Source of the DNA: an uncultured Actinomycetes bacterium
GTDB lineage: Bacteria > Actinomycetota > Thermoleophilia > UBA2241
Direction: 5' to 3'
Length of the DNA: 64,000 nt
Assembly: GCA_963709345.1 (NCBI GenBank)
Contig: CAVPVX010000010.1
Coordinates: 96,001-160,000, forward strand
Shown one piece after another: positions 7,531 through 42,099 of the stretch. Below the pieces are notes generated by a model. The model was given only the letters and a program-made list of their open reading frames with translations, was not told where the DNA came from and did not search any database. The first letter of the stretch is position 1, and each line of letters begins with the position of its first letter. Position numbers and translations under genes: made by a program.

Positions 7531-7667
7531 CGTCAGTGATCGATCCCTTCTGGTGGGGCGGGATGGCCTTCGGCCCCGCCGCATCCTTCGTCGAGACTGG
7601 AGAGCAAGTATACATCTTGACTACAGTGTAGAGGCACACCCTAAAGCAGGCAACTCCGCACCTCTAT

Positions 7668-9230: not shown

Positions 9231-9355
9231 GTCCCCCTCCAGGTACGTTCGGTCGAGGTCGTCGCGATGAATGGTACCTGCTGCGGCTCGCTAGTGACAG
9301 GAGGTCGCCGTGGCTATTTCGGGCGGGGATTCGGCGGGTGAGGCAGCCACATCCC

Positions 9356-22820: not shown

Positions 22821-23016
22821 CGGGCGCCTCCCAGGTTGCGGCCGCGGTCACGTGCACTGTACCCACGCCGCCGCGCGGTATTCCACGTCGTGATGACGGC
22901 GACAGGGCCGGCGATACGGCCCCTCATCATTCTCCGGGGCCGGCCTGCTATCCTTGCGGCGGGCGGGGCCCGGAGGGCCGCTCCCGCCCCACGCGCCGTC
23001 GTCAACGGGAGACCAC

Positions 23017-24252
23017 ATGCCCGACCAGCCATACGAAGACGTCCAGATCGAGGGCCACCTCATCGACTCTCTCATGATGCCGCAGACGATGGACGAGATC
23101 ATGGACCTCGAGGGCGAGTACGAGGTACTGACCTTCGACGTTGGGCGCGTGAAGGATGACCCGTCTCACGCCGTGCTGCGGATCTTCGGCCGCGACGCCG
23201 CTCACCTGGACGAGCTGCTCAGGGCGGTCACGAAGTTCGGCATGTGCGCCTTGCAGCCCCACGATGCCGTGCTCGAGGCCGCCGACATCGACGGCGTCTT
23301 CCCCGACACCTTCTATTCCACCACCAACCTCGACACCTTCGTCCGCGTGGCCGGAGACTGGGTGCGGGTGCAGCATCCCGAGATGGACTGCGGCATCCGC
23401 GTGGACGAGGCGGCCGGCGCGGCCGAGACGGTGGTGATGAGCGACGTGCGGGCCGGCGACCGCTTCGTCACCGGCCATCGCGGCATCCGCGTGCTGCCGC
23501 TGGCGCGGCCACGTGAGAGCCAGCCGTTCGAGTTCATGGCCTCGGCGGTCAGCAGCGAGAAGCCCAAGGCGCAGATCGTCCACGAGGTCGCGCACATCCT
23601 CCGGCAGGTCAAGGAGGAGGGGCGGCTCACCATAGCCGTGGTCGGGCCGGCGGTCGTGCACACGGGGGCGGCGCCGAGCCTCGCCCGCCTCATCGAGGCG
23701 GGCTACATCGGCGCGGTCTTCGGCGGGAATGCCGTGGCCACCCACGACGTCGAGTCGAGCCTGTTCGGCACCTCCCTGGGCATCAACCTCAAGGAGGGGA
23801 CGCCGGTGCCCGGCGGCCACGAGCACCACCTGCGCGCCATCAACACCATCCGGCGCGCCGGGAGCATACGGGCCGCCGTCGACCAGGGCATCCTGACCGG
23901 CGGCCTCATGTACACGCTCACGAAGACCGGCACGCCCTTCGTCCTCGCGGGGAGCATCCGCGACGACGGCCCGATGCCCGAGGTGGTCACCGACGTCATG
24001 CAGGCGCAGCACGAGATGCGGCGCTACGCGCAGCAGGCCGGCGCCTGCCTCATGCTGAGCACGATGCTGCACAGCATAGCCGTAGGCAACATGCTGCCGG
24101 CCAGCGTGCGCACCGTCTGCGCCGACATCAACCCCGCGGTCGTGACGAAGCTGGCCGACCGTGGTTCCTTCCAGGCCATCGGCATCGTCACCGATGTCGG
24201 CCTGTTCGTGGAGCAACTCGCCGACGAGCTGGACGGCGCCGGCGGCCGATGA
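23017..24252 (+). CDS. TIGR00300 family protein (ArgZ/AgrE-type ornithine cyclodeaminase-like)
   Basis: EGHLIDS, FYSTTN, EMDC, FEFM, VSSEK, AGSIRDDGP and LHSIAVGNMLP. Confidence 0.85.
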   Translation: MPDQPYEDVQIEGHLIDSLMMPQTMDEIMDLEGEYEVLTFDVGRVKDDPSHAVLRIFGRDAAHLDELLRAVTKFGMCALQPHDAVLEAADIDGVFPDTFYSTTNLDTFVRVAGDWVRVQHPEMDCGIRVDEAAGAAETVVMSDVRAGDRFVTGHRGIRVLPLARPRESQPFEFMASAVSSEKPKAQIVHEVAHILRQVKEEGRLTIAVVGPAVVHTGAAPSLARLIEAGYIGAVFGGNAVATHDVESSLFGTSLGINLKEGTPVPGGHEHHLRAINTIRRAGSIRAAVDQGILTGGLMYTLTKTGTPFVLAGSIRDDGPMPEVVTDVMQAQHEMRRYAQQAGACLMLSTMLHSIAVGNMLPASVRTVCADINPAVVTKLADRGSFQAIGIVTDVGLFVEQLADELDGAGGR

Positions 24253-28308: not shown

Positions 28309-29334
28309 TCAGTACTGGGCCTCGTGACCGACCTCGATCATGGCCCGGATGTTTTCGATCGGAGTATGGAGGCTCAGATCGCAGCCACTCGCGAGCACGA
28401 AGCCCCCACCCGCCCAGCCCTTCGACACGCACGACCTGGCCGCTTCCCTCACCGTCTCGGGAGAGCCGTCGAGAAGGAGCCCAACGGGATCCACGTTACC
28501 GAGCAGGCAGACGGAGGCGCCGATGGCCTCCTTCACGACGGCCGTATCCACCGACGCGTCGAAGCTGAAAGCCGTCGCACCCGTGTCCGCTGCGAGCGTG
28601 AGGATCTTGGCGGTCTTGCCACACACGTGCAGGATCGACGGCAAGTCCACCTTCTGGAGCGCCTCGACGACAGTCCTCGTGGACGGAGCTGCGTACTCCG
28701 CGTAGTGTCGTGGAGATATCAGGTCGCCGGACGCGGTGGGGTCGCTGAGGACGAACCCGTGGACCCCGAGGTCCGCGTACAGCTGCAGATGCCGCACGAT
28801 GACCTCGGTCGAGAACTCGATCAAGCGGTGGACCTCGTCGGCGTGTTCGATCAGATCCGTCATCAGGTCGGTCATCCCGCGCAGGTGACCCGCCAGCGTG
28901 AAGGGCAGAGGGAGCGAGGCGTAGCAGAACACTTCATCGCCAAGCTCCTCCAGGAGCGCCTCGGCAGCGATCAGAGACGACTGCACGCGGGAGCTTGCGC
29001 TCGTGTCCACGAGGACGAGGTCCGCCACCTCATCAAGTGAATGAAGCGCAGGCTCGATGACACTGGGGCTCCCAACCTCGGTGATCCGGGAAGTGCAGCC
29101 AAGCAGGTCGACGAAGGCGAACCAATCCCAGACGATCTCGATCGCGTCAAAGGGACAGGCTGCCTGTGCATTGACGATGGCTGCGGCTGCCCTCTCAGGA
29201 TGAGCCAACGACTCGGGGGTCGACAAGCCGAAGGCGTCGAGAGCCCAGTAGCCTTGGAAGGGAGGCGCGACGGGCACCCTGTCGGGCGGGTCGAGCAGTC
29301 GAAGAGCCTTGGTGAACCTCTCCCTCCCGGTCAT
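28309..29334 (-). CDS. Uroporphyrinogen decarboxylase family / MtaA-CmuA-like methylcobamide methyltransferase
   Basis: DRVPVAP, PFTLAGHLRG, SDPTAS..ISP, LHVCG, GNVDP and LASGCD (Zn ligands H-x-C...C). Confidence 0.85.
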   Translation of the reverse strand: MTGRERFTKALRLLDPPDRVPVAPPFQGYWALDAFGLSTPESLAHPERAAAAIVNAQAACPFDAIEIVWDWFAFVDLLGCTSRITEVGSPSVIEPALHSLDEVADLVLVDTSASSRVQSSLIAAEALLEELGDEVFCYASLPLPFTLAGHLRGMTDLMTDLIEHADEVHRLIEFSTEVIVRHLQLYADLGVHGFVLSDPTASGDLISPRHYAEYAAPSTRTVVEALQKVDLPSILHVCGKTAKILTLAADTGATAFSFDASVDTAVVKEAIGASVCLLGNVDPVGLLLDGSPETVREAARSCVSKGWAGGGFVLASGCDLSLHTPIENIRAMIEVGHEAQY

Positions 29335-29925
29335 CTGCGTCCCTTCTGCGTCTGAGGCTTCATCGGGCGTCCTCTCCGCAGCTGCGGCATGAACGAGGCG
29401 CCCCGCGTGCGGTGCCCGTTCGCCGAGACCTCGCTGCGGACGATGGCGAGTGCAGTGTATCCGTACGTACTCGGCCTTGGCGGTGGCACCCCGCGCCGTC
29501 CTCGACCGCGAGTTCGACGCGCCGTGCGAGTGGAACATCCAGGCGCGTGCACTCGTCTCCCTGGGGCGTACAAGGGTCTGTGGACGAGCGCGACCACTGG
29601 CCGGGCGTTCCGCAGCGAGTGTCGGCCGTCGGTGACTACGTGGGTGCGGGCCCAAGCGCTCTCGCGTGCGTCCAACGCTCGGCGGGCGAGATGCTGAGTG
29701 GCAACGCGCGCGACGATTCCCCCGAGGTCACCGCACCTCTCGCGGCTCCCGGCATGCGACTGTGGGATGACGCAAGTGCTGTGACGATTGTGGGAGCCCG
29801 CGGCGCCGGCGCCGCGTTCGGCGGCGTGTGTCGAGCGATCTCACTCCGCACGCACGGCACTTGCTCTTGCACAGCAGGATGACTCATAGTCGCAAGACGC
29901 TGCGACGAGGAGGATCGAACGTGAC

Positions 29926-30918
29926 ATGCCCGACTCCCCCACCCGACGAGAGGAGGCTCCAGTGAGGGGCTACGGGCCCGCAGACCCATCGGCGACGCCG
30001 CGCTTCGCGGGGATCTCCACGTTCCTGCGTTTGCCGCACACGACGAACCTCGAGGGCGTGGATGTGGCGGCGGTGGGCTTGCCGTTCGACACCGGCGTGT
30101 CGTTTCGCGTGGGAGCACGATTCGGGCCAAAAGCCATCCGGGACGGCTCTCTGGCGTTTCGCCCGGACTTCAACCCGGAGCAGGGCGTCTCGGTGTTCGA
30201 ACGGCTCTCGGTGATCGACTATGGCGACGCCCCGATCGTGCCCGGCGCGACAGTAGCATCGCTCGACAAGATGTCCGGGTCGTTGGGCGTGCTGCATGAA
30301 GCGGGCGTGATACCGATTGGCTTCGGTGGAGATCACAGCGTGCTGCTCGCGGAGCTGCGGGCAGCCGCCGCGACGCGCGGTCCGCTTGCAGTCATCCAGT
30401 TCGACGCTCACTGCGATACTCGTGATGACTACTTCGGCGAGAAGTACACCCACGGTACAGTCCTGCGTCGCGCCTGCGAGGAGGGACTCGTCGACGCGTC
30501 CCGCTCGACTCTGATGGGCATGCGGGGCGGGCTCGCCGGACCGAATGACCATGAAGAGGCTCGTGCCCTGGGCTTCCATGTCGTGCGCTGGACCGAACTG
30601 GCCAGTCTCGGCGTGGGCGCGGTCAAGACGGCTGTCGAACGTGCTCGCGGCAAGGCTTTCCTCACGTTCGACATCGACTTCATCGACCCGGCGTACGCTC
30701 CGGGCACGGGCACCCCCGTGTGTGGTGGCCCGTCGTCGATGCAGGCGCTGGAGTTGCTGCGGGCGTGTCGCGGCCTGCATATCATCGGTGCGGATGTCGT
30801 CGAGGTGGTGCCCGACCTCGACAGCTCCTATCTCACGGCGATGCTTGCGGCGACGGTCGCGTGGGAGATCCTCAGTCTCATCGCCGTGAGTACGGTGATG
30901 ACTGCGGGAAGCCACTAG
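29926..30918 (+). CDS. Ureohydrolase (agmatinase/guanidinobutyrase family)
   Basis: GARFGP, GGDHS, FDAHCD, HGT, FDIDFIDP, APGTG and DVVE. Confidence 0.9.
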   Translation: MPDSPTRREEAPVRGYGPADPSATPRFAGISTFLRLPHTTNLEGVDVAAVGLPFDTGVSFRVGARFGPKAIRDGSLAFRPDFNPEQGVSVFERLSVIDYGDAPIVPGATVASLDKMSGSLGVLHEAGVIPIGFGGDHSVLLAELRAAAATRGPLAVIQFDAHCDTRDDYFGEKYTHGTVLRRACEEGLVDASRSTLMGMRGGLAGPNDHEEARALGFHVVRWTELASLGVGAVKTAVERARGKAFLTFDIDFIDPAYAPGTGTPVCGGPSSMQALELLRACRGLHIIGADVVEVVPDLDSSYLTAMLAATVAWEILSLIAVSTVMTAGSH

Positions 30919-30921
30919 CAG

Positions 30922-31317
30922 GCCGTCACGCCGATTCGTCCCGGTCTCGCCCTCTACAACCCGGTCAAGATCCCCTTCACCCCGGAGTTCTGGGAACTCA
31001 TGAAGAAGAACGACTGGGAGTTGATTCCGGCCGCCGAGCCGACCTGGGTGCACCAGATCCCGTGCTGCCTGTACGATGTGTACAAGCAGAAGTCATGGAT
31101 CTCCATGAACACCTTCTCGCTCGGCCCGAACACCATCTGCGTGGAGTCGCACGAGACGGCCTTCTGCGAGCAGCTCGACAAGCTCGGCGTCGAAGTCGTT
31201 CCAATCCCCTACGAGAAGGTCACGCCATTCGGCGGGGCGCTCCACTGCACCACGCTCGATGTCTACCGTGATGGGGACTGCGAGGACTACTTCCCCAACC
31301 AGATCGAAGGGTACTGA
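30922..31317 (+). pseudogene. C-terminal third of an amidinotransferase (paralogue of 36532..37743)
   Basis: AVTPIRPGLALYNP...KSWISMNTFS...FGGALHCTTLDVYR aligns with the full copy from just after its HID motif; N-terminal two thirds absent. Confidence 0.85.
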
Positions 31318-31577
31318 TGGTCAGTTGACTCACGCTCCGGGAGGAGCTGGCCCGAAGCGGCGCTGACGGCGGCGGTTGTTTCACCTGACCCCGGGTCTCG
31401 CCCCAGCGCGCTCGCGGCTCCCCCGCCGTGGCCCACGGGCCGGTTCCTTCCGGAACGTTCTTCTGACGCAGCCGCAGGGCGAGAGTCCTGGAGCCGCCGC
31501 AATGCCTTTTCACCCTCTGAGAACCGCGCCGAGCGCCGTGGACTTGCGGCTCTGCTCTTGAGCGACCATGCGGAGGG

Positions 31578-31626
31578 ACCTGCAGCGACAGGAGTGAGCA
31601 TGGCAGAGAGAACGCAAGCTCTGTTC
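31578..31626 (+). repeat. Degenerate copy of the arcE RBS and first 9 codons
   Basis: acctgcagcgacaggagtgagcATGgcagagagaacgcaagctctgttc aligns ungapped with 31780..31828 (MAERTQALF vs MAERTKVLI). Confidence 0.8.
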
Positions 31627-31751
31627 AACTCTCCAATTGTTCGGTAGGTATTGTCGTCTTCGTGCATCCCACCGCCCTCACGTGTAGCTGTCCGCCTAGG
31701 AAAACGGCCTCCGGAGGACCGTTTGACACTCTACAGTCGACTGGTAGAATA
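31618..31751. repeat. About 135-bp repeat, copy 1: truncated MerR-regulator start plus divergent promoter
   Basis: Closely similar and ungapped vs 36229..36362 (offset 4611); minus strand encodes MHEDDNTYRTIGELNR vs MHEDDKTYRTIGELSR. Confidence 0.9.
31723..31750 (+). promoter_or_regulatory. sigma70-type promoter of arcEBC with palindromic operator
   Basis: TTGACA (31723), 16-bp spacer, TAGAAT (31745); spacer contains the CAGTCGACTG palindrome (31734..31743), extendable to TCTA..TAGA. Confidence 0.8.
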
Positions 31752-31801
31752 GCGGCGCTGCAAAGAGGCACGTATAGACACCTGCTACCACAGGAGTGAC
31801 C

Positions 31802-33124
31802 ATGGCTGAGCGAACCAAAGTCCTGATCATGGGAGCCGCCGGACGCGACTTCCACAACTTCAACACGTACTTCCGCGACAACGAGGCGTACGAAGTCGTG
31901 GCGTTCACCGCCACGCAGATCCCGTTCATCAACGACCGCAAGTACCCGGCTGGGCTCGCCGGCAAGCTCTATCCCGACGGCATCCGCATCTACGACGAGT
32001 CGGAAATGCCCGAGCTCGTCAAGAAGTTCGCCGTCGACCAGGTCGTGTTCGCGTACTCGGACGTACCATATGAGTACGTCATGCATCGCTCGGCTCTCGT
32101 CAACTCCCTCGGCGCCGACTTCCGCCTGCTCGGCCCGGAGCACACCATGGTCAAGAGCACCAAGCCGGTGATCGCGGTCTGCGCCGTGCGTACCGGCGCC
32201 GGCAAGAGCCAGACCACGCGCAAGATCCAGACCACCCTGCGCGCCGCCGGCAAGAAGGTCGTCAGCATCCGTCACCCCATGCCCTACGGCGACCTGGTCG
32301 CCCAGAAGTGCATGCGCTTCGCCACGGTCGAGGACCTCGCCAAGAACAACTGCACCATCGAGGAGATGGAAGAGTACGAGCCGCACGTCACGGCCGGCAA
32401 CGTGATCTACTCCGGCGTCGACTACGAGGCCATCGTGCGCGAGGCCGAGAAGGAAGCCGACATCATCCTCTGGGATGGCGGCAACAACGACTTCTCCTTC
32501 TACAAGCCCGACCTGTACATCACCGTCGCCGACCCGCATCGTCCGGGTGACGGCCTCAGGTACTATCCCGGCGAGGTCAACCTTCGGCTCGCCGACGTCG
32601 TCGTGCTCAACAAGGTCGACTCCGCAGATGCCGCCGGCATCCAGGCCGAGCTCGAGGCGGTGCGCTCGGTCAATCCCGACGCACGTATCATCATGGGCGC
32701 TTCGCCGCTCACCGTCGACAAGCCCGAGCTCGTCCAGGGCAAGCGCGTCCTCGTGGTCGAAGACGGCCCGACGCTCACGCACGGCGAGATGAAGTACGGC
32801 GCCGGCACCGTGGCCGCCAGGCAGCTCGGTGCCGCCGAGTTCATCGACCCGCGTCCGTTCGCCGTCGGCGAGATCACCTCCACCTTCGAGAAGTACCCGA
32901 ACATCGGCGTGCTTCTTCCGGCGATGGGCTACTCGCAGGAGCAGCTCAACGACATGGAGACCACGATCAACAACTCCGGTGCCGACGTGATCGTCATCGG
33001 TACGCCGATGGATCTTCGCCGCATCATCAACATCAAGATCCCCGCGGTGCAGGTCAAGTACGACCTCCAGGAGATCGGCAGCCCGACGCTTGAGGACATC
33101 TTGCGCGAGCGCAAGTTCATCTAG
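31802..33124 (+). CDS. arcE: Arginine synthetase (ArcE; usually auto-annotated as cyclic 2,3-DPG synthetase-like GTPase)
   Basis: MGAAGRDFHNFN, P-loop AVRTGAGKS, RHPMPYG, WDGGNND, EDGPTLTHG and PAMGY; directly upstream of OTC and carbamate kinase. Confidence 0.8.
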   Translation: MAERTKVLIMGAAGRDFHNFNTYFRDNEAYEVVAFTATQIPFINDRKYPAGLAGKLYPDGIRIYDESEMPELVKKFAVDQVVFAYSDVPYEYVMHRSALVNSLGADFRLLGPEHTMVKSTKPVIAVCAVRTGAGKSQTTRKIQTTLRAAGKKVVSIRHPMPYGDLVAQKCMRFATVEDLAKNNCTIEEMEEYEPHVTAGNVIYSGVDYEAIVREAEKEADIILWDGGNNDFSFYKPDLYITVADPHRPGDGLRYYPGEVNLRLADVVVLNKVDSADAAGIQAELEAVRSVNPDARIIMGASPLTVDKPELVQGKRVLVVEDGPTLTHGEMKYGAGTVAARQLGAAEFIDPRPFAVGEITSTFEKYPNIGVLLPAMGYSQEQLNDMETTINNSGADVIVIGTPMDLRRIINIKIPAVQVKYDLQEIGSPTLEDILRERKFI

Positions 33125-33141
33125 GAGCCGCTCGTAGCATT

Positions 33142-33181
33142 TCGGCGGCGGCCGGTTTGCGGAACAACCGGCCGCCGCCGA
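33142..33181 (+). terminator. 16-bp-stem intergenic hairpin between arcE and arcB (terminator or mRNA stabiliser)
   Basis: tcggcggcggccggtt ... aaccggccgccgccga; no strong U-tract. Confidence 0.55.
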
Positions 33182-33238
33182 GCCGTCTGTTGCGGCGGCT
33201 CACCAGTTCAGCCAACTATCCCGTCAAGGGAGGGTTGC

Positions 33239-34201
33239 TTGTCTACCCCGTTGAATCAATGCATCTCCGAACTCGATCTCACCGGTCGCAGCTTCCTCAC
33301 GATCCACGAGTTCACACCAGCTGAAATCACCGCGTTGCTCGATCTGACCACGGAGTTCAAGGGAGCGCGGAAGCGCCGTGAGCTGACGCCACTGCTTGCC
33401 GGACGCACTGTCGCGATGATCTTCATGAAGACCTCGACGCGCACCCGGGTGAGCTTCGAGGTCGGCATCGCCCAGCTCGGCGCCCAGGCCATGTTCCTCA
33501 ACGCCAACGACATCCAGCTTCACGTCGGGGAGACCATCAAGGACACGGCCAACGCGATGAGCCGCTACGTGGATTGCATCATGATCCGCACCTTTGCCCA
33601 CAAGGACGTCGAGGACCTCGTGGCCTACGGGCAGATCCCGATCATCAACGGGCTCACCGACCTGCATCACCCGTGCCAGGCACTCTCGGACGCACTCACG
33701 ATCCGCGAGCACGTCGGCCGCCTCGAGGGCGTCAGGGTGGTCTACTCAGGCGACGGCAACAACGTCGCCCACTCCCTGGCGGAGGTGGGCGCGAAGACAG
33801 GGATGCATGTCGTGATCTGTTCACCAGCCGGGTATCGGCCCGACACTGCGATCATCGAACGGGCCCGCGAGGACGCCAAGGCGACCGGTGCGACCATCGA
33901 GCTCACGAGTGATCTCAAGACCGCCGTCAAGGGCGCGGACGTCATCTACACCGACACGTTCACGAGCATGGGCCAGGAGGCGGACCACGACGTCCGCCTC
34001 GCCGGCCTGCGCGACTACCAAGTCAATATGGACCTGCTACGCCTCGCTGGCCCGCAGGCCAAGGTCATGCACTGCCTGCCGGCGCACTGGGGTGAAGAGA
34101 TCACCGAAGAAGTGCTCTACTCGCCGCGCTCCGTGGTCTTCGACCAGGCGGAGAACCGGCTGCACGCACAAAAGGCGATCATGGCAGCAGTGATCGCATG
34201 A
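33239..34201 (+). CDS. arcB: Ornithine carbamoyltransferase
   Basis: STRT, HPCQ, DxxxSMG and HCLP motifs (SMG loop indicates ornithine specificity). Confidence 0.92.
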   Translation: MSTPLNQCISELDLTGRSFLTIHEFTPAEITALLDLTTEFKGARKRRELTPLLAGRTVAMIFMKTSTRTRVSFEVGIAQLGAQAMFLNANDIQLHVGETIKDTANAMSRYVDCIMIRTFAHKDVEDLVAYGQIPIINGLTDLHHPCQALSDALTIREHVGRLEGVRVVYSGDGNNVAHSLAEVGAKTGMHVVICSPAGYRPDTAIIERAREDAKATGATIELTSDLKTAVKGADVIYTDTFTSMGQEADHDVRLAGLRDYQVNMDLLRLAGPQAKVMHCLPAHWGEEITEEVLYSPRSVVFDQAENRLHAQKAIMAAVIA

Positions 34202-35205
34202 GCCTCGTGAAGGAGTCAGGTAACGTGCCTCAGAACTCAGGCGAACGCGGAAAGACAGTAGTGATTGCCCTCGGTGGCAATGCGATCTTGCAGCCGGGGC
34301 AGATCGGGACCTTCGAAGAGCAGCTTGTGAATGTCGATGGCGCTATGCGCTGCATCACCGATCTTGTCGAGGGCGGCTGGCGCGTCGTGCTCACCCACGG
34401 CAACGGCCCCCAGGTCGGTGATCTTCTCGTGCAGAATGCGCTCGCCGCAGGGACTGTACCGGTGATGCCGATGGATGTCTGCGGCGCCGAGAGCCAGGGC
34501 GAGATCGGCTACATGCTCGAGCAGACCCTCTTGAATCACTTCCTGAAGCGGCACATCTCCGTGCCGGTCGTCACAGTGCTTACGCAAGTTGCCGTGAGCG
34601 CCACAGACCAGGCGTTCGAGAACCCGACCAAGCCGGTCGGCGCGTTCTACTCTGAGGACGAGGCAAAGAAGATGATGCTTGAGCAGGGCCACGTCATGCG
34701 GGAAGACGCCGGCAGGGGCTGGCGGCGCGTGGTTCCTAGCCCCGAACCCGTGGAGATCGTCCCTCGCAAAGCGATCGTCGACATGGTCGACGACGGTATC
34801 TGTGTCATCTGCTCCGGCGGGGGCGGCGTTCCCGTGGTGCGCGCCAAGGATGGCACACTATCGGGCATCGCGGCAGTCATCGACAAGGACCTGGCTGCGG
34901 CACTGCTTGCCAAGGAAGTGGCCGCTGACGCGCTTCTCATTCTCACCGACGTGTCTCAGGCCTACGTTGACTACAACACCCCGGACCAGCGTGGTCTTGG
35001 CATCGTGAGTCTCACCGAGATGCAGGGATACGCTGACGACGGACACTTCAAGGCCGGCTCCATGGGCCCCAAGGTGAAGGCATGCATGCGGTTCGTGGAG
35101 GGCGGGGGGACGGCAGTCATCGGCAGCCTGACCGAAGTGGTCCAGGCGATGGCCGGTGAGGCTGGGACCACCATCGTCCCTGACGACGACCCACGGACCG
35201 AGTAG
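34198..35205 (+). CDS. arcC: Carbamate kinase
   Basis: ALGGNA, THGNGPQVG, PTKPVG, RRVVPSPEP, AVIDKD and GSMGPK. Confidence 0.95.
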   Translation: MSLVKESGNVPQNSGERGKTVVIALGGNAILQPGQIGTFEEQLVNVDGAMRCITDLVEGGWRVVLTHGNGPQVGDLLVQNALAAGTVPVMPMDVCGAESQGEIGYMLEQTLLNHFLKRHISVPVVTVLTQVAVSATDQAFENPTKPVGAFYSEDEAKKMMLEQGHVMREDAGRGWRRVVPSPEPVEIVPRKAIVDMVDDGICVICSGGGGVPVVRAKDGTLSGIAAVIDKDLAAALLAKEVAADALLILTDVSQAYVDYNTPDQRGLGIVSLTEMQGYADDGHFKAGSMGPKVKACMRFVEGGGTAVIGSLTEVVQAMAGEAGTTIVPDDDPRTE

Positions 35206-35444
35206 CGGCTGTCGACAAGGCGAGGCAAGGGGAGGATCAGCGGCCGAATCGCGAATGGCCCTTGCGAGCCGGGATCGTACAAGAGGGAGCGGGAGGCGGG
35301 TGACCGTCGCCCGTTCCCTCCGTCAGCGGAGAGTGCGCGGGGAGGAGAGAAGACACCGACTCCAGGGGTGCCGATCCCGTTCGCACTGACTCGCTTCCCA
35401 GGAGGTGAGACCCAGCCATCCGCTCGACACGGACCGTCGGGGCG

Positions 35445-36278
35445 CTATTCGGAGGTGCTGGAACACGACGGTGCTCCTATCATCTCGACGTGTACCGCAT
35501 GCGCCTCGGTGTCGGTCGGGTTGCTCCATGTCCACGGAGTGCCGGGAGGCAGCATGATCGAGTCGCCGGGGCCCAGAAGAGCGGCCTCTTCAATGCTTTC
35601 GCCCGTGACGAGACGGAACTCGAACCAGCCCTCCGTGACGAACACGAACGTCTCGTAGCGACGCGAGAGATACCCGCCGCTGCCCGATCCTGCCGGCGCG
35701 ATGATGAGAGCGGGCTCCATACAGTGGCCGAGCCCGGCAAGCTCTTCGTATCTGACGCCACCTGCCAACGAGATTCCCCGACGGCTTGCTGCTCGTTCGA
35801 CGTGCCTGTCGGCGGGTTGCGGTCCGCTGGAGAAGACGCTCTGGGGCAGATTGAGCGCGTCGGCGATCCGCGCCATGGTCGTCGCCGATGCGCCAGACTC
35901 GCCGCGCTCGAGACTGGACAGGAACGACTCGGACAGCTCGGCATCGGCCGCCAGCGCCTGGAGGGTCAGACCGCGGGACAGGCGTATGTGCCGCACTCTG
36001 GCGCCCAACGACGAGTCGCCTGCGTCGGGATTCTGCTTCGGTGCCGAAAGCGTCCCGGAGCTGAGCATGGCGGCCGCGTTCCACCCATGCTGGCGCCGCA
36101 GTCCGACCACCTGGCGTACCCTGCGGTAGCACTCCGCGTCGTAGAGCCGCTGTCCACCCGCGCTCCTGTGCGGCGAGATCAAGCCTCGCCGCTCCCAGTT
36201 TCGCAGCGTCTGAGGACTCACGCCGACGGCTCTGCTCAACTCTCCAATTGTTCGGTAGGTTTTGTCGTCTTCATGCAT
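35445..36278 (-). CDS. Transcriptional regulator: MerR HTH + XRE HTH + cupin
   Basis: TIGELSR..TLRNWERRGLI.P.RSAGGQRLY; LTLQALA..SESFLSSLERG; C-terminal cupin (ETFVFVTEG...PGDS). Confidence 0.88.
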   Translation of the reverse strand: MHEDDKTYRTIGELSRAVGVSPQTLRNWERRGLISPHRSAGGQRLYDAECYRRVRQVVGLRRQHGWNAAAMLSSGTLSAPKQNPDAGDSSLGARVRHIRLSRGLTLQALAADAELSESFLSSLERGESGASATTMARIADALNLPQSVFSSGPQPADRHVERAASRRGISLAGGVRYEELAGLGHCMEPALIIAPAGSGSGGYLSRRYETFVFVTEGWFEFRLVTGESIEEAALLGPGDSIMLPPGTPWTWSNPTDTEAHAVHVEMIGAPSCSSTSE

Positions 36279-36362
36279 CCCTTCGACCTCACGTGTAGCG
36301 GTCCGCCTAGGAAAAAGGCGCCCGGAGGACCGATTGACACTCTACAGTCGACTGGTAGAATA
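36229..36362. repeat. About 135-bp repeat, copy 2: intact regulator start plus divergent promoter
   Basis: Matches 31618..31751. Confidence 0.9.
36334..36361 (+). promoter_or_regulatory. sigma70-type promoter of the amidinotransferase with the same operator
   Basis: TTGACA, 16-bp spacer, TAGAAT; the 28 bp are identical to 31723..31750. Confidence 0.8.
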
Positions 36363-36531
36363 TCAGCGTTACAGCGTCTCAATGAAGATTTCTCATCTTG
36401 CGGACGACGCGGCGGCAACAACAAGGAGGTTCATGCGCGGTAGCTTGCTGACTAGTCCAAGTGCCTCCGAGACTGACGGTACTGCCTCGGCAGCGCACTG
36501 ACCCAAATGCCCCTACCAGAGGAGTGAAGAT

Positions 36532-37743
36532 ATGCCTACTATCGTCAAGTCGTGGGATGAGTGGTCGCCACTCAAGCGCGTGATCATCGGGCGTCCGGAG
36601 GGGACCAACGTTCCGGCTCCCGAGCCGGCTTGGTTCTACGACCTGCCGAATGGCGGGTACCCGCTCGGCTCGCACGGCCCGTTCCCGCAGGAAATGGTCG
36701 ACGCCGCCAACGAGCAGATGGACTACTTCGTCGCCCAGATCGAGAAGCGCGGCGCCATCGTCGAGCGCATCGACATCCAGCCCTTCATGATGAACAAGCC
36801 CCTCTGCTCGCCGCTCGGCTGGGTCCATGAGGGCGCGCACGGCGTGAACAACGTCCGCGACGTCACCACGATCCACGGCAACTACATCATCGACGCCACG
36901 ACGGTCCGCCGCTCCCGCGTCTTTGAGCGCTTCAACCTCCGGCCGATCTTCGAGCGCTACTGCGAGGAAGATCCCGAGGCTGTGCACTTCTCCGCGCCGT
37001 TCCCGATGCTCACCGACGAGTCGTACGTGAACATCTCCGGCACCGGCGCGCCGGACTACTACCATTACTACGAGAACGTGTGGACCGACGAGGAGAAGCG
37101 CGACCGCCTCTACAACTCCGAGTTCCAGCTCGCTGAGAAGGAAGCCCTCTGGGATTCCGCCGACACCATGCGTTTCGGCAAGGACTGCTTCCACCAGATC
37201 TCCTGCGTGACCAACAAGAAGGGCGTAGACTGGCTGAAGCGCATGTTCGCCTCCCTCGGCCTGCGGCTGCACCACATCACGTTCGACACGCCGATGGATC
37301 CGTCCAAGCAGAAGCCGGAGAACTTCCATCCGTGGCACATCGACGTCAACTTCGTGCCGCTGCGCCCGGGTCTCGTCATGACCAACCCGGACTGGAAGCC
37401 GCGCACTCCTGAGGTCTTCGAGCTCTTCAAGCTCAACGATTGGGAGATGATCGAGGCCGCACGCCCGACGCGCGTCCACAAGAACGACGTCTTCCTGACC
37501 GGCCTCTACGAGGGTAAGTCCTGGATCTCGATGAACACCTTCTCGTTCGACGAGAAGACCGTGTTCGTCGAGGCCGGCGAGACGGCGTACTGCGAGCAGC
37601 TTGAGAAGCTCGGCTTCGACGTCGTGCCGATCCCGTACGAGAAGGTCATTCCATTCGGTGGGGCGCTGCACTGCACCACCCTGGACGTCCACCGCGAGTC
37701 CGAGTGTGTGGACTACTTCCCGAAGCAGGTAAAGGGATACTGA
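36532..37743 (+). CDS. Amidinotransferase (glycine/inosamine-phosphate amidinotransferase family)
   Basis: SWDEWSPLKRVIIG, RD, DSAD, WHID and GGALHC(T)TLD: Asp-His-Cys triad of the pentein amidinotransferases. Confidence 0.9.
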   Translation: MPTIVKSWDEWSPLKRVIIGRPEGTNVPAPEPAWFYDLPNGGYPLGSHGPFPQEMVDAANEQMDYFVAQIEKRGAIVERIDIQPFMMNKPLCSPLGWVHEGAHGVNNVRDVTTIHGNYIIDATTVRRSRVFERFNLRPIFERYCEEDPEAVHFSAPFPMLTDESYVNISGTGAPDYYHYYENVWTDEEKRDRLYNSEFQLAEKEALWDSADTMRFGKDCFHQISCVTNKKGVDWLKRMFASLGLRLHHITFDTPMDPSKQKPENFHPWHIDVNFVPLRPGLVMTNPDWKPRTPEVFELFKLNDWEMIEAARPTRVHKNDVFLTGLYEGKSWISMNTFSFDEKTVFVEAGETAYCEQLEKLGFDVVPIPYEKVIPFGGALHCTTLDVHRESECVDYFPKQVKGY

Positions 37744-37758
37744 GTCGAATCGCGCAGA

Positions 37759-37790
37759 ACAGGAGGGCGCCGCACGTGGCGCCCTCCTGT
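37759..37790 (+). terminator. Hairpin after the amidinotransferase
   Basis: 13-bp stem acaggagggcgcc / ggcgccctcctgt. Confidence 0.6.
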
Positions 37791-38126
37791 GCTGCATCCA
37801 AGCAGCGTTGTCCCCCAAGGACAAGGGGAAACATGCGGGCCCCACGCCAAACGGCACGACCCGCGCTCTTCCCCGGGAGAGGGCTCTCGGGGCTTGTGCG
37901 GCGCCCGTGCACGACCGCTGCGCGTAGCCGGTCGTTACCGGCTTTGAACGGCGATCGCGCACGCATGCCGCGTGCGGCCATCTTCGGCCGCGTTCCGTAT
38001 CGTTGTCTTCCGTACTCATTCAGCATGCGCTCGGTGTCGGCAGGGGATAGATCCGCCACCGGGCGGACGAGGGGGAGATCGTGATGCAAACAGGGTGCCA
38101 TGGGATAATCGAAGGGGGTTTGACCA

Positions 38127-39653
38127 GTGGATAAGTTCGAAATCGGCCTTTTCCTGCTCATCGCTTTTTTCGCCATAGTCGGTATGTCCACGTATTTCCT
38201 CGTACGTAAGAGCGGTAAGCGCTTCATCATCGCCGGCAAGTCGCTGCCATTCTTCATCATCGGAACGATGCTGTTCGCCCAGGCGCTGGATGCCAACGCC
38301 ACGCTGGGGAACACTGGTGCCGCCTACGGCAGTGGCTTCTGGTGGGGGTTCCAGTTCCCGCTGGGCCTGGCCCTCTGCCTGTTCATCACCGGTATCTGGT
38401 TCGCCAAGCCGCTGAACCGGATGAACCTCATGACGCTGCCCGACTATTACTACCGGCGCTACGGCAGCGCGACAGAGGTCATCGTCTCCGTGCTGATGGC
38501 CGTGAGCTTCATCATCCTCGTGGCCGGTAACCTGGCGGGCTGTGCCTGGATCATCCACATCATCTTCGGCGTAGGCTACGTCCCGTCACTCATCATCATC
38601 AGCCTGATCATCATGGCCTACACCGTCAGCGGCGGGCTCTTCTCGTGCGCCGCGACCGACATCGTGCAGCTGTATCCGGCGTTCATCGCCTTCGTGGTGG
38701 GGACGATCTGGCTGGTCGTCGACGGCGGTGGCTGGTCCGAGTACGCCGCCGTGATCCCGGACGGGTACTTCAGCATGGCCGGCCTGACGTCGTTCGACGA
38801 CGGCGCGCTTGTCGTCTGGGCCGGCATCCTGGCGCTGGCGATCGGCGATATCGTCGCACTGGACTTCATGGAGCGCATCTTCTCCGCCAAGAGCCCGGAA
38901 ACGGCGCGGAGAGGCTGCTTCTTTGCCGGCGTCATGACGCTCGTCGTCGGCTTCTGCGCTTCTCTCATGGGCCTGATGGCGTTCAAGCTGATCCCCGGCG
39001 GCGTGGACGACCCGCGGTCGGTAATCATCACTATTGCGACCGCATCGTTGCCGTTCCTCCTGGGCCTCTTCGTTCTCGGCGGCATCCTCGGCGCCGGCTT
39101 GTCCACCGCCAACGGTGGCTCTCTCGGAATCTCCGCCGTCTTCGCCCGGAACATCATGCAGAGGAACATCTTCCTGCCGAGGATCCGCAGGCAGGCCAAG
39201 GCCGAGGGCAAGGACTTCCTGGAGGTCATGGAGTCGACCGACTGGCACAAGGCAGACCAGAAGCTGCTGTGGTACGCGCGACTCATGCTCATCCCCACGT
39301 TCGCGGCGGCCATCACGCTCGCCTACTATCGGCCTGAGCCGGGCATGCTGCTCGTCCTCGCGTTCGACGTGGTCTTTGCCGGCTGCGTCGCGCCCCTGAT
39401 CCTGGGGATGTACTGGAAGAAGGCCAACGCGTACGGCGCCGTGACGGCCGTCATCGTCGGCAGCGTGTTGCGTCTGGTGCTCTACTACACCATTCCGGTG
39501 GAGTGGGCCGGCATCGATACCATGATCCCGCCGGTCGTTTCGGTGGTGGTCATGGTGATCGTGTCGCTGGCCACACAGACGCAGAGTCCGCCGATGCACG
39601 AAGTGAACTTCGAGACGCCCGACGAAGCCGAGGTCGCTCGAGCACTCCGCTAG
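38127..39653 (+). CDS. Sodium:solute symporter family transporter
   Basis: FIIAGKSLP, TLPDYYYRRYG, YTVSGGL..TDIVQ and RIFSAKS; about 13 TM segments. Confidence 0.9.
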   Translation: MDKFEIGLFLLIAFFAIVGMSTYFLVRKSGKRFIIAGKSLPFFIIGTMLFAQALDANATLGNTGAAYGSGFWWGFQFPLGLALCLFITGIWFAKPLNRMNLMTLPDYYYRRYGSATEVIVSVLMAVSFIILVAGNLAGCAWIIHIIFGVGYVPSLIIISLIIMAYTVSGGLFSCAATDIVQLYPAFIAFVVGTIWLVVDGGGWSEYAAVIPDGYFSMAGLTSFDDGALVVWAGILALAIGDIVALDFMERIFSAKSPETARRGCFFAGVMTLVVGFCASLMGLMAFKLIPGGVDDPRSVIITIATASLPFLLGLFVLGGILGAGLSTANGGSLGISAVFARNIMQRNIFLPRIRRQAKAEGKDFLEVMESTDWHKADQKLLWYARLMLIPTFAAAITLAYYRPEPGMLLVLAFDVVFAGCVAPLILGMYWKKANAYGAVTAVIVGSVLRLVLYYTIPVEWAGIDTMIPPVVSVVVMVIVSLATQTQSPPMHEVNFETPDEAEVARALR

Positions 39654-39668
39654 ACGCGTCTTGCTTGT

Positions 39669-39706
39669 GGGGCGGGGCGATCCTGCGGGATCGCCTCGCC
39701 CCTTTT
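39669..39706 (+). terminator. Rho-independent terminator
   Basis: ggggcggggcgatcc ... ggatcgcctcgcccc followed by tttt. Confidence 0.7.
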
Positions 39707-39952
39707 CGCGTACGCCCGGCGTCGTCTGAGGACGCTCTGTTCGCGCTCTCCGCATCATCGAGCGCTTCGACAGCCTGCAAGACGCGACTTGGCTGCCGCC
39801 CGGCGCTGGCAGGGTCGCACACTCCACCGCCCCCTCGTCGGTCGTCTGACGTTCACCGGCACGCGTCAATCCGGTAGACTGCGCGCAACTCCCGGTGACT
39901 TGGCTTCGCACCCGCGGATGCCGCGCCCGGCCGCTTCAAGGAGACCACCTCG

Positions 39953-41317
39953 ATGGCAGCCAACCTCATCGACGACAGTCACCTCGTCAAGACGCGCGAG
40001 ATGTTCGCCAAGTGCCAGCAGGTCGTCTCCGGCGGCGAATCCAGCTACGCGCGCCTCATCGGTACGCGCCCGATCGTCATGGAGCGCGGCGAGGGCGCCT
40101 ACTTCTTCGACGTGGACGGCAACGCCTACATCGACTGGTGCATCGGCTACGGCCCCATGATCTTCGGCCACCGCCCCAAGCCGATCCTCGACTCGATCGT
40201 CGCCCAGATCACCCAGGGCGGCATGCTCTACACCTTCCCGCACGAGCTGGACTACGAGGTCGGCCGCAAGATCATCCAGGCGGTGCCCGGCATCGACCAG
40301 GTGCGCTTCGCCAACTCCGGCAGCGAGGCGACCCAAGCGGCGATCCGCCTCGCGCGTGCCTACACGGGCAAGGACAAGATCATGAAGTGGGAGGGGAGCT
40401 ACAACGGCTTCCTCGACTGTCACGCCTACTCGCACATCACGGCGATGGGGGCGGCCGGCACCGAGCGCTTTCCGCGCGTCCAGCCGTCCTCGGCCGGCAT
40501 TCCCAAGGCACTCGACGACACGATGGTCATCGGCTGCTTCAACGATCTGGACGCCGTCGAGACGGTCATCAGGCGCAACCGCGACGAGCTGGCCTGTGTG
40601 CTCGCGGAGCCGATCCTCGCCGACGCCGGCATCATCCCGCCGGTCCCCGGCTTCCTCGAGGGCCTGCGCCGCATCTGCGACGATAACGGCGTGCTCCTCG
40701 TCTTCGACGAGATCATCACCGGCTTCCGGGTCTCGCTCGGGGGCGCCCAGGAGCTGTACGGCGTCACCCCGGACATCACCTGCGTCGCCAAGGCGGTCGG
40801 AGGCGGCACGCCCGGCGCGGCGGCCTTCGGCGGCAAGAAGGAGATCATGGCACTCGAGGCCGACGGCACCGTGCTCCACGGCGGCACCTACAGCGGCAAC
40901 CCCATGACGCTGGCCGGCATGAACGCCGCGCTCGACATCCTGATCAACGACCGCGAGCGCGTGTACGGCCACCTCAACTCGATCGCCAACGCGATGGTCC
41001 AGGGCATGCGCGGCATCTTCACCGAGAACGGCGTGCCCGCGTACATCAGCCAGGTGGGGCCGATGTGGCAGGTGTTCTTCGGCCAGGAAGGCCCGGTCAC
41101 GAAGTACCGGCAGGCCCGGGCCAGCGACACCCGGTTCTTCGGCATGCTGCAGGCCGAGTGCCAGATGCGCGGCGTGTACTTCCACAACTTCAACTTCGAG
41201 CGCTTCTTCGCGAGCACGGCGCACACCAAGGCCGAGGTCGACCGCAGCCTCGAGGTGATCGCCACGGCGACGAAGATCGTGAAGGACCGGCTCTCGAATC
41301 TGCCGGCCGGGGTCTGA
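39953..41317 (+). CDS. Class III PLP aminotransferase (glutamate-1-semialdehyde aminomutase-like)
   Basis: DVDGNAYID, RFANSGSEA, FDEIITGFR, AKAVGGG (PLP Lys) and GTYSGN. Confidence 0.88.
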   Translation: MAANLIDDSHLVKTREMFAKCQQVVSGGESSYARLIGTRPIVMERGEGAYFFDVDGNAYIDWCIGYGPMIFGHRPKPILDSIVAQITQGGMLYTFPHELDYEVGRKIIQAVPGIDQVRFANSGSEATQAAIRLARAYTGKDKIMKWEGSYNGFLDCHAYSHITAMGAAGTERFPRVQPSSAGIPKALDDTMVIGCFNDLDAVETVIRRNRDELACVLAEPILADAGIIPPVPGFLEGLRRICDDNGVLLVFDEIITGFRVSLGGAQELYGVTPDITCVAKAVGGGTPGAAAFGGKKEIMALEADGTVLHGGTYSGNPMTLAGMNAALDILINDRERVYGHLNSIANAMVQGMRGIFTENGVPAYISQVGPMWQVFFGQEGPVTKYRQARASDTRFFGMLQAECQMRGVYFHNFNFERFFASTAHTKAEVDRSLEVIATATKIVKDRLSNLPAGV

Positions 41318-41383
41318 GACGGCCTGAGCGGCCGCGACACGAGTGGCCCGGGGGCGCCCGAGCGGCGCCGGTGGAGATGATGC

Positions 41384-41426
41384 GACGGGGGCGAGGCGGC
41401 CGGAAGGGCCACCCCGCCCCCGTCGT
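41384..41426. terminator. Hairpin between the convergent aminotransferase and vapC
   Basis: gcgacgggggcg ... cgcccccgtcgt. Confidence 0.45.
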
Positions 41427-41443
41427 GCGCGTGCTGCCGGCCT

Positions 41444-41851
41444 TCAGCTCCGGGGTGCGTACCGCGTGAAGCCCTGCTCGTCGAAGTGCGGGTCGAGGCC
41501 GAGATAGCGGTCGATCTCACGGCGGCGCATCACCGCGAAGCTCACGCAGTCCACGAGACTGAGGCGACGCCGCCGTGCGGTCAGCAGCGCTTGCAGGCCG
41601 AGCGCGTGATCCGCATCGGTGACCCAGTGGATCTCGGCCATGGGGAGCATGTCGTCCATGAGTGTGCGGACCGCGTCCACGCCGAGACGCCGCTGCGTCA
41701 GGGCGGTCGTCTCGAGTACGACGTAGTTGCTGGTCACAAAGCCCTCGCCGTCGTCGATACCGCTGTCCCAAGCGGGGCGAAGGAGCTCGTGACCGACGTC
41801 GCCGATGTCGAGGAGAGCGTACAGAGCGGTGGTGTCGACGAACACAGTCAT
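41444..41851 (-). CDS. vapC: PIN-domain toxin
   Basis: VFVDTTA, VVLET, SLVDCVSF and DPHF. Confidence 0.9.
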   Translation of the reverse strand: MTVFVDTTALYALLDIGDVGHELLRPAWDSGIDDGEGFVTSNYVVLETTALTQRRLGVDAVRTLMDDMLPMAEIHWVTDADHALGLQALLTARRRRLSLVDCVSFAVMRRREIDRYLGLDPHFDEQGFTRYAPRS

Positions 41852-42099
41852 TCGTCGATGGAATCTGCGAAGTAGTCGTCGTGGCGCACGGAGACGTCGC
41901 CAAGCCCCGAGCGGAAGCGGCCGCAGGCCGCCTTGGCTCTGCGCCTGCGTTCGTCGAGGCTGACACCGGGGCGCTGCCGCAGCAAGCTCTCATCGACGGC
42001 GTTGCGCACCACAGCCGAGATCGAGACCTGACGCTCAGAGGCTTGGCGACGCAACGCCTCGACCGCGGACTCGGTGAACTGGATCTGCATGCGGATCAT
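41848..42099 (-). CDS. vapB: Ribbon-helix-helix antitoxin
   Basis: MIRMQIQF...SISAVVRNAVD...SG..DVS.RHDDY; overlaps the toxin start. Confidence 0.8.
   Translation of the reverse strand: MIRMQIQFTESAVEALRRQASERQVSISAVVRNAVDESLLRQRPGVSLDERRRRAKAACGRFRSGLGDVSVRHDDYFADSIDE

Follow-up and report, generated by a model that had tools for sequence, protein, structure and literature searches.

Within a 64-kb window of the genome of an uncultured soil or sediment actinomycete of the class Thermoleophilia (assembly GCA_963709345.1, contig CAVPVX010000010.1, positions 96,001 to 160,000), we find a gene for an amidinotransferase (AT) and a gene for a sodium:solute symporter (SSS) close to arcE, arcB and arcC, which encode a homologue of the ArcE-type arginine synthetase, an ornithine carbamoyltransferase (OTC) and a carbamate kinase (CK), and copies of one promoter precede both units. 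In our estimate the chances are about even that the AT and the importer act as a module that feeds the reversible arginine synthetase pathway. This proposal is built on the gene identities, the copied promoter, the synteny of the locus, the co-occurrence of AT and ArcE in other genomes, the intact active site of the AT and the loss of arginine genes from the host, all of which are established. Features were mapped on the window, i.e., on the whole stretch of 64 kb, and coordinates refer to it (with the strand as + or -) unless a contig or locus is named; the host genome measures 3.1 Mb, with ~70% G+C and a completeness of 98%.

In the mechanism that we propose, the importer, an SSS protein here and an APC permease in the closest relative, would take up a guanidino compound, and the AT would transfer the amidino group of this compound to ornithine, giving arginine. 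ArcE would convert arginine, ADP and Pi to citrulline, NH3 and ATP, OTC would split citrulline to ornithine and carbamoyl phosphate, and CK would form a second ATP from carbamoyl phosphate, with ornithine going back to the AT. The net flux would run from the guanidino compound to an amine, CO2, 2 NH3 and up to 2 ATP, in addition to a refill of the arginine pool. Both units would be transcribed from copies of one near-consensus promoter, and a divergently encoded MerR/XRE/cupin regulator probably binds a palindrome in the spacer of this promoter. A first-pass annotation of this DNA had proposed an amidinotransferase-fed energy cycle, which the coupling of AT and ArcE and the intact active site bear out in part; its direction and ATP yield are what we infer, as we do the substrates of the AT, the binding of the regulator and induction.

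An amidinotransferase with an intact active site

The AT (36532-37743, +; 403 aa) is homologous over its full length to four proteins of known structure in the PDB, SxtG (E = 3.5e-39), HsvA (5.5e-38), AGAT (1.5e-34) and StrB1 (5.2e-27). Residues C381, H269 and D208 align with C407, H303 and D254 of human AGAT (1jdw chain numbering), which we take to be the catalytic Cys-His-Asp triad of that enzyme, and D110 and D271 align with D170 and D305, presumably its guanidino-binding Asp residues. These five positions are invariant among the 15 members of the AT family that we aligned, and as judged from this alignment the active site is intact. The substrate flap differs from that of AGAT in two positions (N300 is H266 and M302 is W268 in the AT) and is preceded by an 11-residue insertion.

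The family shows 60-96% identity among its best 120 matches, and its members are annotated as either 'glycine amidinotransferase' or 'serine/threonine protein kinase', the latter of which is wrong. The linkage of the AT to ArcE and OTC points indirectly to the use of L-arginine and L-ornithine as one substrate pair, i.e., to a predicted transfer and not a hydrolysis.

An ArcE-type enzyme and no arginine deiminase

The product of arcE (31796-33124, +) has no Pfam or NCBIfam family match. It is similar to cyclic 2,3-diphosphoglycerate synthetase (PDB 9sxb; E = 1.3e-8, residues 215-357), with a HypB-type GTPase match at E = 0.0012, and its relatives, the closest of which come from metagenome-assembled genomes (MAGs) of Thermoleophilia, are annotated as 'predicted GTPase' or 'cyclic 2,3-diphosphoglycerate synthase'. 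The available text of PMC11032458 describes ArcE as weakly similar to cyclic 2,3-diphosphoglycerate synthetase, with homologues annotated as GTPases, and we find both features here, the comparison with the founding protein TK2200 being made by this published description. The gene context is also that of an ArcE, since arcE, arcB (33239-34201, +; TIGR00658, 422.8 bits) and arcC (34198-35205, +; TIGR00746, 405.3 bits) are contiguous and the genome has no arcA. The true start of arcE is likely the ATG at 31802, which would give a protein of 440 aa like its relatives. The start of arcC overlaps the stop of arcB, which is the second OTC gene of the genome, and the presence of carbamate kinase in the operon is a marker of ATP gain from carbamoyl phosphate. 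An identity of the cluster OTCs as PyrB or putrescine carbamoyltransferase was rejected, with 6 of 6 proteins checked passing the OTC cut-offs, and the CKs checked in two other loci both pass the curated carbamate kinase (arcC) cut-off.

The reaction of ArcE is near equilibrium (Keq 10.1, deltaG0' -6.8 kJ/mol), and ArcE, OTC and CK are all reversible, according to the available text of PMC11032458. Arginine supply can therefore drive ArcE towards ATP and, by the same token, the same genes can run in either direction.

The lack of an arginine deiminase, which the first-pass annotation had claimed for the window, extends to the whole genome, where no canonical enzyme is present and the best arcA score is 83.6 bits against a cut-off of 489. 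The accompanying claim that an arginine/ornithine antiporter is missing goes as far as a single APC permease query, for which the contig of the window gave no match. The best arcA-scoring protein is a 291-aa DDAH-like protein on another contig, C1 (C1:408612-409487), and 9 kb from it lies a third, distant AT paralogue with 28-32% identity (C1:398956-400020; the two are listed as loci L084 and L003).

A copied promoter cassette precedes both units

The 28-bp promoter/operator reported earlier upstream of both arcE-arcB-arcC and the AT gene is confirmed. The 28-mer TTGACACTCTACAGTCGACTGGTAGAAT occurs exactly at 31723-31750 (+; copy 1, upstream of arcE-arcB-arcC) and at 36334-36361 (+; copy 2, upstream of the AT gene), where 100 shuffles give an expectation of 0, and no further match was found with up to 3 mismatches allowed. 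A search of the 3.1-Mb genome for its 17-nt core, allowing up to 2 mismatches, gave these 2 copies only (and 0 for a control pattern). A consensus scan of 29500-41600 for sigma-70-like sites returned only the two copies of the 28-mer, both of which match 11 of the 12 consensus positions and have a 16-nt spacer and an extended -10 TG. For example, copy 1 consists of TTGACA, a 16-nt spacer containing the perfect palindrome CAGTCGACTG, and TAGAAT.

A 145-nt direct repeat (31618-31762 and 36229-36373, the second copy lying between the regulator and AT genes), which is 90% identical overall, has the 28-mer as its core; this core is 100% identical between the copies and the remainder has diverged. 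Since this repeat carries the first ~16 codons of the regulator gene in antisense, the arcE copy was taken from the intergenic region between the regulator and AT genes, where copy 2 is presumed to be the original. The shared site is a copied promoter cassette and not a pair of independently evolved operators, and such a copy makes co-regulation of the arcEBC and AT units plausible.

The divergent regulator (35445-36278, -) combines a MerR-type helix-turn-helix (HTH) domain (PF00376 at 8e-17, residues 10-46) with an XRE-type HTH domain and a cupin sensor domain, and a homologue (64%) is found at the equivalent position in the closest relative, locus L004. Promoters of the MerR family have an over-long spacer of 19-20 nt between their -35 and -10 hexamers, whereas the spacer here is 16 nt, and the XRE HTH and cupin domains resemble those of PuuR-type repressors, so that the predicted action of the regulator at the palindrome is more likely repression.

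Promoter copy 2 reaches the AT gene through a leader of ~170 nt. This leader contains a 22-codon open frame (36433-36501, +) with AAGGAGG ahead of it, and no Rfam family matches it. As a clue to the ligand we also looked for a riboswitch: a Rfam scan of 29000-42000 (E <= 1) returned only three chance-level miRNA/snoRNA matches, and nine related loci at the gathering threshold gave one tRNA, with no guanidine or other riboswitch in either scan.

The amidinotransferase is linked to ArcE in many phyla

Taking one genome per species, the best 80 of 119 AT relatives gave 78 distinct loci from other genomes, in which partners were counted by clustering of open reading frames and by tblastn within the fetched flanks. 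ArcE is near the AT in 48 of these 78 loci, SSS in 43, OTC in 38 and CK in 36, followed by a HAD-IIA hydrolase (17), an ArgA-like GNAT (11), a protein family that we call c14 (11) and a ureohydrolase (6). In 36 loci the distance from ArcE to the AT is no more than 400 nt, in 29 the SSS gene is no more than 500 nt from the AT, and 26 loci have ArcE, OTC and CK together. Where at least 5 kb is available on both sides (n = 27), ArcE is present in 20, OTC in 22, CK in 16 and SSS in 16. The commonest gene orders are OTC>CK>ArcE>AT>SSS and ArcE>AT>SSS>CK.

In the AT tree, the ArcE-linked proteins come from MAGs labelled Actinomycetota, Chloroflexota, Thermodesulfobacteriota, Bacillota, Spirochaetota, Acidobacteriota/Aminicenantes and others, and the ArcE-linkage label changes 14 times, against a mean of 25.9 when shuffled. 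A flank without ArcE was seen in 18 AT genomes, 15 of which have the gene elsewhere, and with the 41 cluster genomes this amounts to 56 of the 59 AT-bearing genomes tested; the linkage counted across genomes is thus not unique to this contig, which the first-pass annotation would have held against its proposal. We also searched 401 genomes of the window's phylum, a sample that includes unpublished genomes, and found ArcE in 115 of them and a close AT (>50% identity) only in the host genome, the next-best AT being 48% identical and not adjacent to arcE. Because AT genomes mostly hold ArcE and most ArcE genomes are without a close AT, we take the AT to depend on ArcE and not the reverse. These comparisons of gene content strongly support a functional coupling of the AT clade to ArcE.

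Two of the loci, L031 and L032, have identical AT proteins and the same gene map in MAGs of different phyla (Desulfatiglandales and Sedimentisphaerales), and are probably one contig binned twice. The 451-aa family c14, which has no Pfam or PDB match, occurs in up to five tandem copies beside the AT, often with a 260-aa protein (c39). It is found downstream of the AT in L068 and L069, both from Aminicenantes MAGs, and also in L070, L071, L073 and L076; the c14 loci mostly have no ArcE in the flank, and c14 stands in the place of ArcE beside some ATs.

Loss of arginine genes leaves ornithine a catalytic role

The host cannot make ornithine or arginine de novo. At C11:471630-473191 (locus L098) argB persists as a remnant in two frames and argR is intact; argR is adjoined by a 70-residue argG remnant, after which an unrelated glycosylase gene follows, and no argC, argJ or argH was found in any part of the genome, which is 98% complete. 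The genome does have carB (carbamoyl-phosphate synthetase) and a second OTC. It follows from this inability that the pool of ornithine, citrulline and arginine is closed and that AT, ArcE and OTC can do no more than interconvert its members; with a closed pool ornithine can act only as a catalyst and only a catalytic cycle can carry net flux. This agrees with the earlier suggestion that ornithine is regenerated catalytically, and a catalytic ornithine cycle is the most coherent reading of the gene content of this host.

Neighbouring genes and history of the locus

The region from ~30000 to 40000 has 63-65% G+C, compared with 68-73% in the remaining window, and the arcEBC/AT/SSS region looks like a compositional island. 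The genes that the first-pass annotation listed are all present, but at the 5' edge it had missed a ureohydrolase gene, the remnant of a second amidinotransferase (AT') and a partial second copy of the arcE 5' end. AT' (30919-31317, +) was recognized by in-frame translation; it starts directly behind the ureohydrolase stop, in the same frame and with no start codon, and spans residues matching 275-403 of the intact AT, i.e., its C-terminal third. Its DNA is 72% identical to 37356-37655 and its protein is 63% identical to the AT and 70-74% identical to cluster-type ATs of other phyla. The second remnant (31578-31627, +) corresponds to the arcE ribosome-binding site and first ~9 codons, with 78% identity to 31780-31829. 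Together with the regulator fragment in the cassette, these two remnants show, as we read them, that the locus once had an AT'>arcE>arcB>arcC unit from which most of AT' was lost, that arcE then gained the promoter of the second AT, and that co-expression was restored after the loss of AT'. The order AT>ArcE>OTC is found elsewhere, for example in loci L059, L063 and L075. A relative's contig from a sediment metagenome (X6) joins 31609 to 31821, with 9 other letters between and a shorter side of 26 letters, as if this relative were without the inserted cassette, which is weak evidence.

The SSS protein (38127-39653, +) matches the Pfam SSF model PF00474 at 1.9e-29 over profile positions 1-406 of 406, and reaches no NCBIfam equivalog cut-off from which a substrate could be read. 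It is presumed to be the importer of the second substrate. Just past the AT stop is a G+C-rich hairpin (37754-37795, +) with 18-nt arms and 94% complementarity, which has no T run and was not scored as a terminator; it is a possible attenuator or terminator ahead of the SSS gene. In the closest relative, an APC permease and a metallophosphoesterase (L004, 2477-5104) lie between the AT gene and arcE in the place of SSS. Neither protein is informative as to the substrate, and the host genome has three phosphoesterase-permease pairs of this kind (C11:117014-119710, C3:10757-13396 and C2:389985-391654).

The full-length, GpuA/GbuA-like ureohydrolase (29926-30918, +) is closest to 3-guanidinopropionase (PDB 3nip, E = 7.6e-75) and guanidinobutyrase (3nio, E = 4.5e-65), exceeds the cut-off of the agmatinase model TIGR01230 (191.4 against 174.3 bits), stays below that of PRK02190 (267.8 against 302 bits), and has a 62% paralogue on contig C1. 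It is possibly a parallel hydrolytic route for guanidino acids. Two of the six ureohydrolases in other AT loci were checked, and both are SpeB-type agmatinases and not orthologues of the GpuA-like enzyme of the window.

The first-pass annotation had assigned the transamination of the released amine to a class-III aminotransferase (39953-41317, +), a step that our results do not support. This gene has a GC3 of 0.96, compared with 0.88-0.90 for arcE, AT and the SSS gene, its product is a HemL/GntE-like paralogue with a HemL score of 387 bits, and it has no orthologue in the 78 AT loci, where the class-III aminotransferases are ArgD-like with 25-27% identity. Its membership in the module is doubtful. 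We rejected the possibility that it is the housekeeping HemL beside hemE, since contig C7 carries the true hemL, with a score of 590.6 bits. Some 7 kb upstream of the cluster, a gene at 22897-24252 (+) encodes stand-alone LOR/SDH and ArgZ-like C-terminal domains (PF21570, 2.5e-97) and no guanidino-modifying N-terminal domain; this protein is arginine/ornithine-related.

Direction and purpose of the pathway

Several of our observations weigh against a cycle that gains ATP from imported guanidino compounds. At the locus itself, the Pfam ADI/amidinotransferase model PF02274, which is centred on arginine deiminases, does not match the 403-aa AT at E <= 0.001 and scores only the AT' remnant (18.9 bits, below the cut-off), and the 28-mer is not conserved in the region between the regulator and AT genes of L004. 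The hairpin and a 383-nt gap separate the AT and SSS genes, which may therefore not share one transcript, and the adjoining guanidino-acid ureohydrolase could hydrolyse the same substrates to urea. Four sequencing runs compared with this DNA gave contigs of relatives only; short ones from a sediment metatranscriptome fall on arcE (32357-32553) and AT (36526-37614) and may be DNA, so that they do not show transcription in the host, and no sequencing run matched the host with half or more of its words (best run, 0.22). Many of the 78 loci are near-duplicates or come from the same MAG or chromosome, so that the counts given above overstate independence.

The remaining points concern the direction of the pathway in other genomes. 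The 41 cluster genomes hold argG in 16 cases, carB in 22 and ArgJ in 30, against 38 for the control alaS; 25 are without argG, 19 without carB and 14 without both. ArgJ is present without argG in 15 of the 41, and ArcE must therefore run towards arginine in these, while 10 of the 41 have neither. In a genome of the same genus as the host (G355), an arcE that is 83% identical to that of the window heads the row arcE-argC-argJ-argB (L107, G355:C1:1467000-1486000, at 5419-10017, -) and argG was not found, which argues that ArcE is anabolic there. Anabolic genes also neighbour the AT elsewhere, namely those for an ArgA-like GNAT, ArgB, ArgJ, ArgC, ArgD and PyrR. PyrR is within the cluster in six loci (L016, L028, L011, L067, L071 and L019), where it sits between AT and carbamate kinase; it was checked in L028 (202.7 bits against a cut-off of 138), and 2 of the 3 PyrR-cluster genomes tested are without carB, with the genomes of L016 and L028 showing no carB, argG or argJ. 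Among the genomes of the phylum sample, 17 of the 115 with ArcE and 8 of the 286 without it have no argG, a tally in which 5 of the 25 argG-negatives were read from gaps in a listing and relatives are not independent. These patterns suggest that in some Actinomycetota the formation of arginine has passed from ArgG/ArgH to ArcE, and that outside the host the module may serve the supply of arginine and carbamoyl phosphate as well as, or instead of, energy.

The alternative that survives best is that the module serves supply and not energy, i.e., that the AT and importer salvage amidino groups for ATP-free arginine and for carbamoyl phosphate for pyrimidines in lineages without ArgG/ArgH, and often without carbamoyl-phosphate synthetase, with CK merely balancing the carbamoyl-phosphate pool. 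We consider this unlikely, although it draws on much of what has just been described: the absence of argG and carB from so many cluster genomes, the more frequent loss of argG with ArcE, the PyrR loci and the frequency of arginine-biosynthesis genes among AT neighbours. The host, moreover, is an arginine auxotroph by gene loss, and the ArcE pathway of Thermococcus kodakarensis is described in the available text of PMC13260591 as a source of carbamoyl phosphate in a strain without carbamoyl-phosphate synthetase, ArgG or ArgH. On the other side, the host of the window has carB and cannot make ornithine, so the AT adds no net arginine unless ornithine is imported, and CK is predicted to be co-transcribed with arcE-arcB here. 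In addition, the incompleteness of MAGs inflates gene absences, and the base rates of argG and carB loss without the cluster come from the window's phylum only. The proposed energy pathway competes with this supply role. Amidino groups would enter a reversible hub, and the host would determine whether ATP, carbamoyl phosphate or arginine comes out; in this one it would be mainly ATP and ammonia.

A second alternative, which we hold to be distinctly improbable, is that the whole system runs the other way as a urea-cycle-like amidination machine, in which CK or carbamoyl-phosphate synthetase, OTC and ArcE make arginine at the cost of one ATP, and the AT amidinates an imported amine, thereby making a guanidino compound and regenerating ornithine. 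The relatives matched in the PDB, AGAT, StrB1, SxtG and HsvA, are presumably all biosynthetic, with arginine as the donor. The adjoining arginine-biosynthesis genes and the 15 genomes with argJ and no argG, in which ArcE must be anabolic, would also be explained, and the reversibility of ArcE, OTC and CK allows it (PMC11032458, in the available text). Against this, there are no conserved follow-on genes (NRPS/PKS, methyltransferase or kinase) around the AT, its conserved partner is a sodium-coupled importer and not an exporter, and the genes for a guanidino-acid hydrolase or agmatinase that adjoin the cluster suggest breakdown. An anabolic carbamate kinase would also be unusual, and we know of no role that a guanidino product made in bulk would have in anaerobes as diverse as these.

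Finally, it is very improbable that the 28-mer is only a recombination scar and the AT/SSS/regulator unit independent and beside arcEBC by chance, since, for all that the repeat carries a useless regulator fragment with the arcE 5' fragment adjoining, lies in a low-GC island with other rearrangement remnants and has an operator not conserved in L004, an intact 11/12 promoter with its palindrome stands 46 nt before the arcE ribosome-binding site with no other promoter-like site in 12 kb, its core is fully identical where the whole repeat is 90% identical, and AT-ArcE linkage is the rule elsewhere.

Relation to known systems

The feeder module that we propose has its nearest counterpart in the arginine synthetase pathway of T. 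kodakarensis (TK2200, ArcB and ArcC), which likewise combines an ArcE-type enzyme with OTC and CK and no deiminase. As described in the available text of PMC11032458 and PMC13260591, that pathway also operates without ArgG/ArgH, as in our host, relies on a near-equilibrium, ATP-forming deimination and is also a source of carbamoyl phosphate. The differences are that an AT and importer are attached here, with ArcE linked in 48 of the 78 AT loci, whereas the available text of neither paper mentions an amidinotransferase; that the proposed input would be a guanidino compound and not arginine, with ornithine recycled; and that the host is a mesophilic bacterium in which a copied promoter connects the two separate units.

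AGAT (1jdw), StrB1, SxtG and HsvA share full-length homology with the AT (E = 1e-27 to 1e-39), and AGAT shares with it the Cys-His-Asp triad and the two guanidino-binding aspartates and catalyses a reaction that is reversible in principle. The identity to these proteins is 25-30% by eye in the alignments, the AT forms its own clade that is 60-90% identical across phyla, and it is found in the setting of catabolic or central arginine metabolism, together with a transporter, and not in that of a natural-product or creatine pathway.

The agmatine deiminase pathway consists of AguA, putrescine carbamoyltransferase, carbamate kinase and an agmatine/putrescine antiporter, and deiminates its substrate with a gain of 1 ATP. 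It likewise imports a guanidino compound other than arginine and turns the carbamoyl unit into ATP by carbamate kinase. By contrast, in the cycle proposed here the amidino group would first go to ornithine, the ArcE route could yield 2 ATP, and there is no putrescine carbamoyltransferase, TIGR04384 scoring below its 500-bit cut-off. The GpuA and GbuA enzymes of Pseudomonas aeruginosa (3nip and 3nio) have a close homologue directly upstream of the cluster and act on the same class of substrates as proposed for the AT, but they hydrolyse these to urea with no energy conserved, and the ureohydrolase is not a conserved part of the cluster.

The earlier statement that no description of such a cycle was known holds for the literature that we searched, in which no paper joins 'amidinotransferase' with 'arginine synthetase' in its main text, nothing relevant was found on amidinotransferase with carbamate kinase, OTC and guanidino compounds, 'COG2403' is not mentioned, and TK2200 appears as arginine synthetase only in PMC11032458 and PMC13260591. 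A review of guanidine treats amidinotransferases only as biosynthetic, in its available text (PMC12623156).

Significance

Somewhat short of even, in our view, are the chances that this cluster represents a 'reverse ornithine cycle' that is widespread among the anaerobic bacteria of sediments and soils, across many phyla, and in which an amidino group would pass via ornithine to two ATP or to carbamoyl phosphate, and free guanidine is a conceivable donor. Guanidino compounds, among them guanidinoacetate, guanidinobutyrate, agmatine, taurocyamine, homoarginine and guanidine, are metabolites that are common and rich in nitrogen, and to our knowledge their breakdown in bacteria proceeds via urea or an ATP-consuming carboxylation. 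If the proposed cycle is correct, it would be the first route by which a guanidino group yields as many as two ATP, i.e., substrate-level phosphorylation from guanidino compounds, and a pathway known since 2024 and from one archaeon only would extend to a bacterial gene cluster in many phyla. The cycle would, in addition, assign a role to a large and highly conserved family of AT proteins, and would explain the loss of argininosuccinate synthetase/lyase and carbamoyl-phosphate synthetase in many of these lineages, in some of which, as the comparative data raise as a testable point, ArcE may stand in place of ArgG/ArgH as the arginine-forming enzyme.

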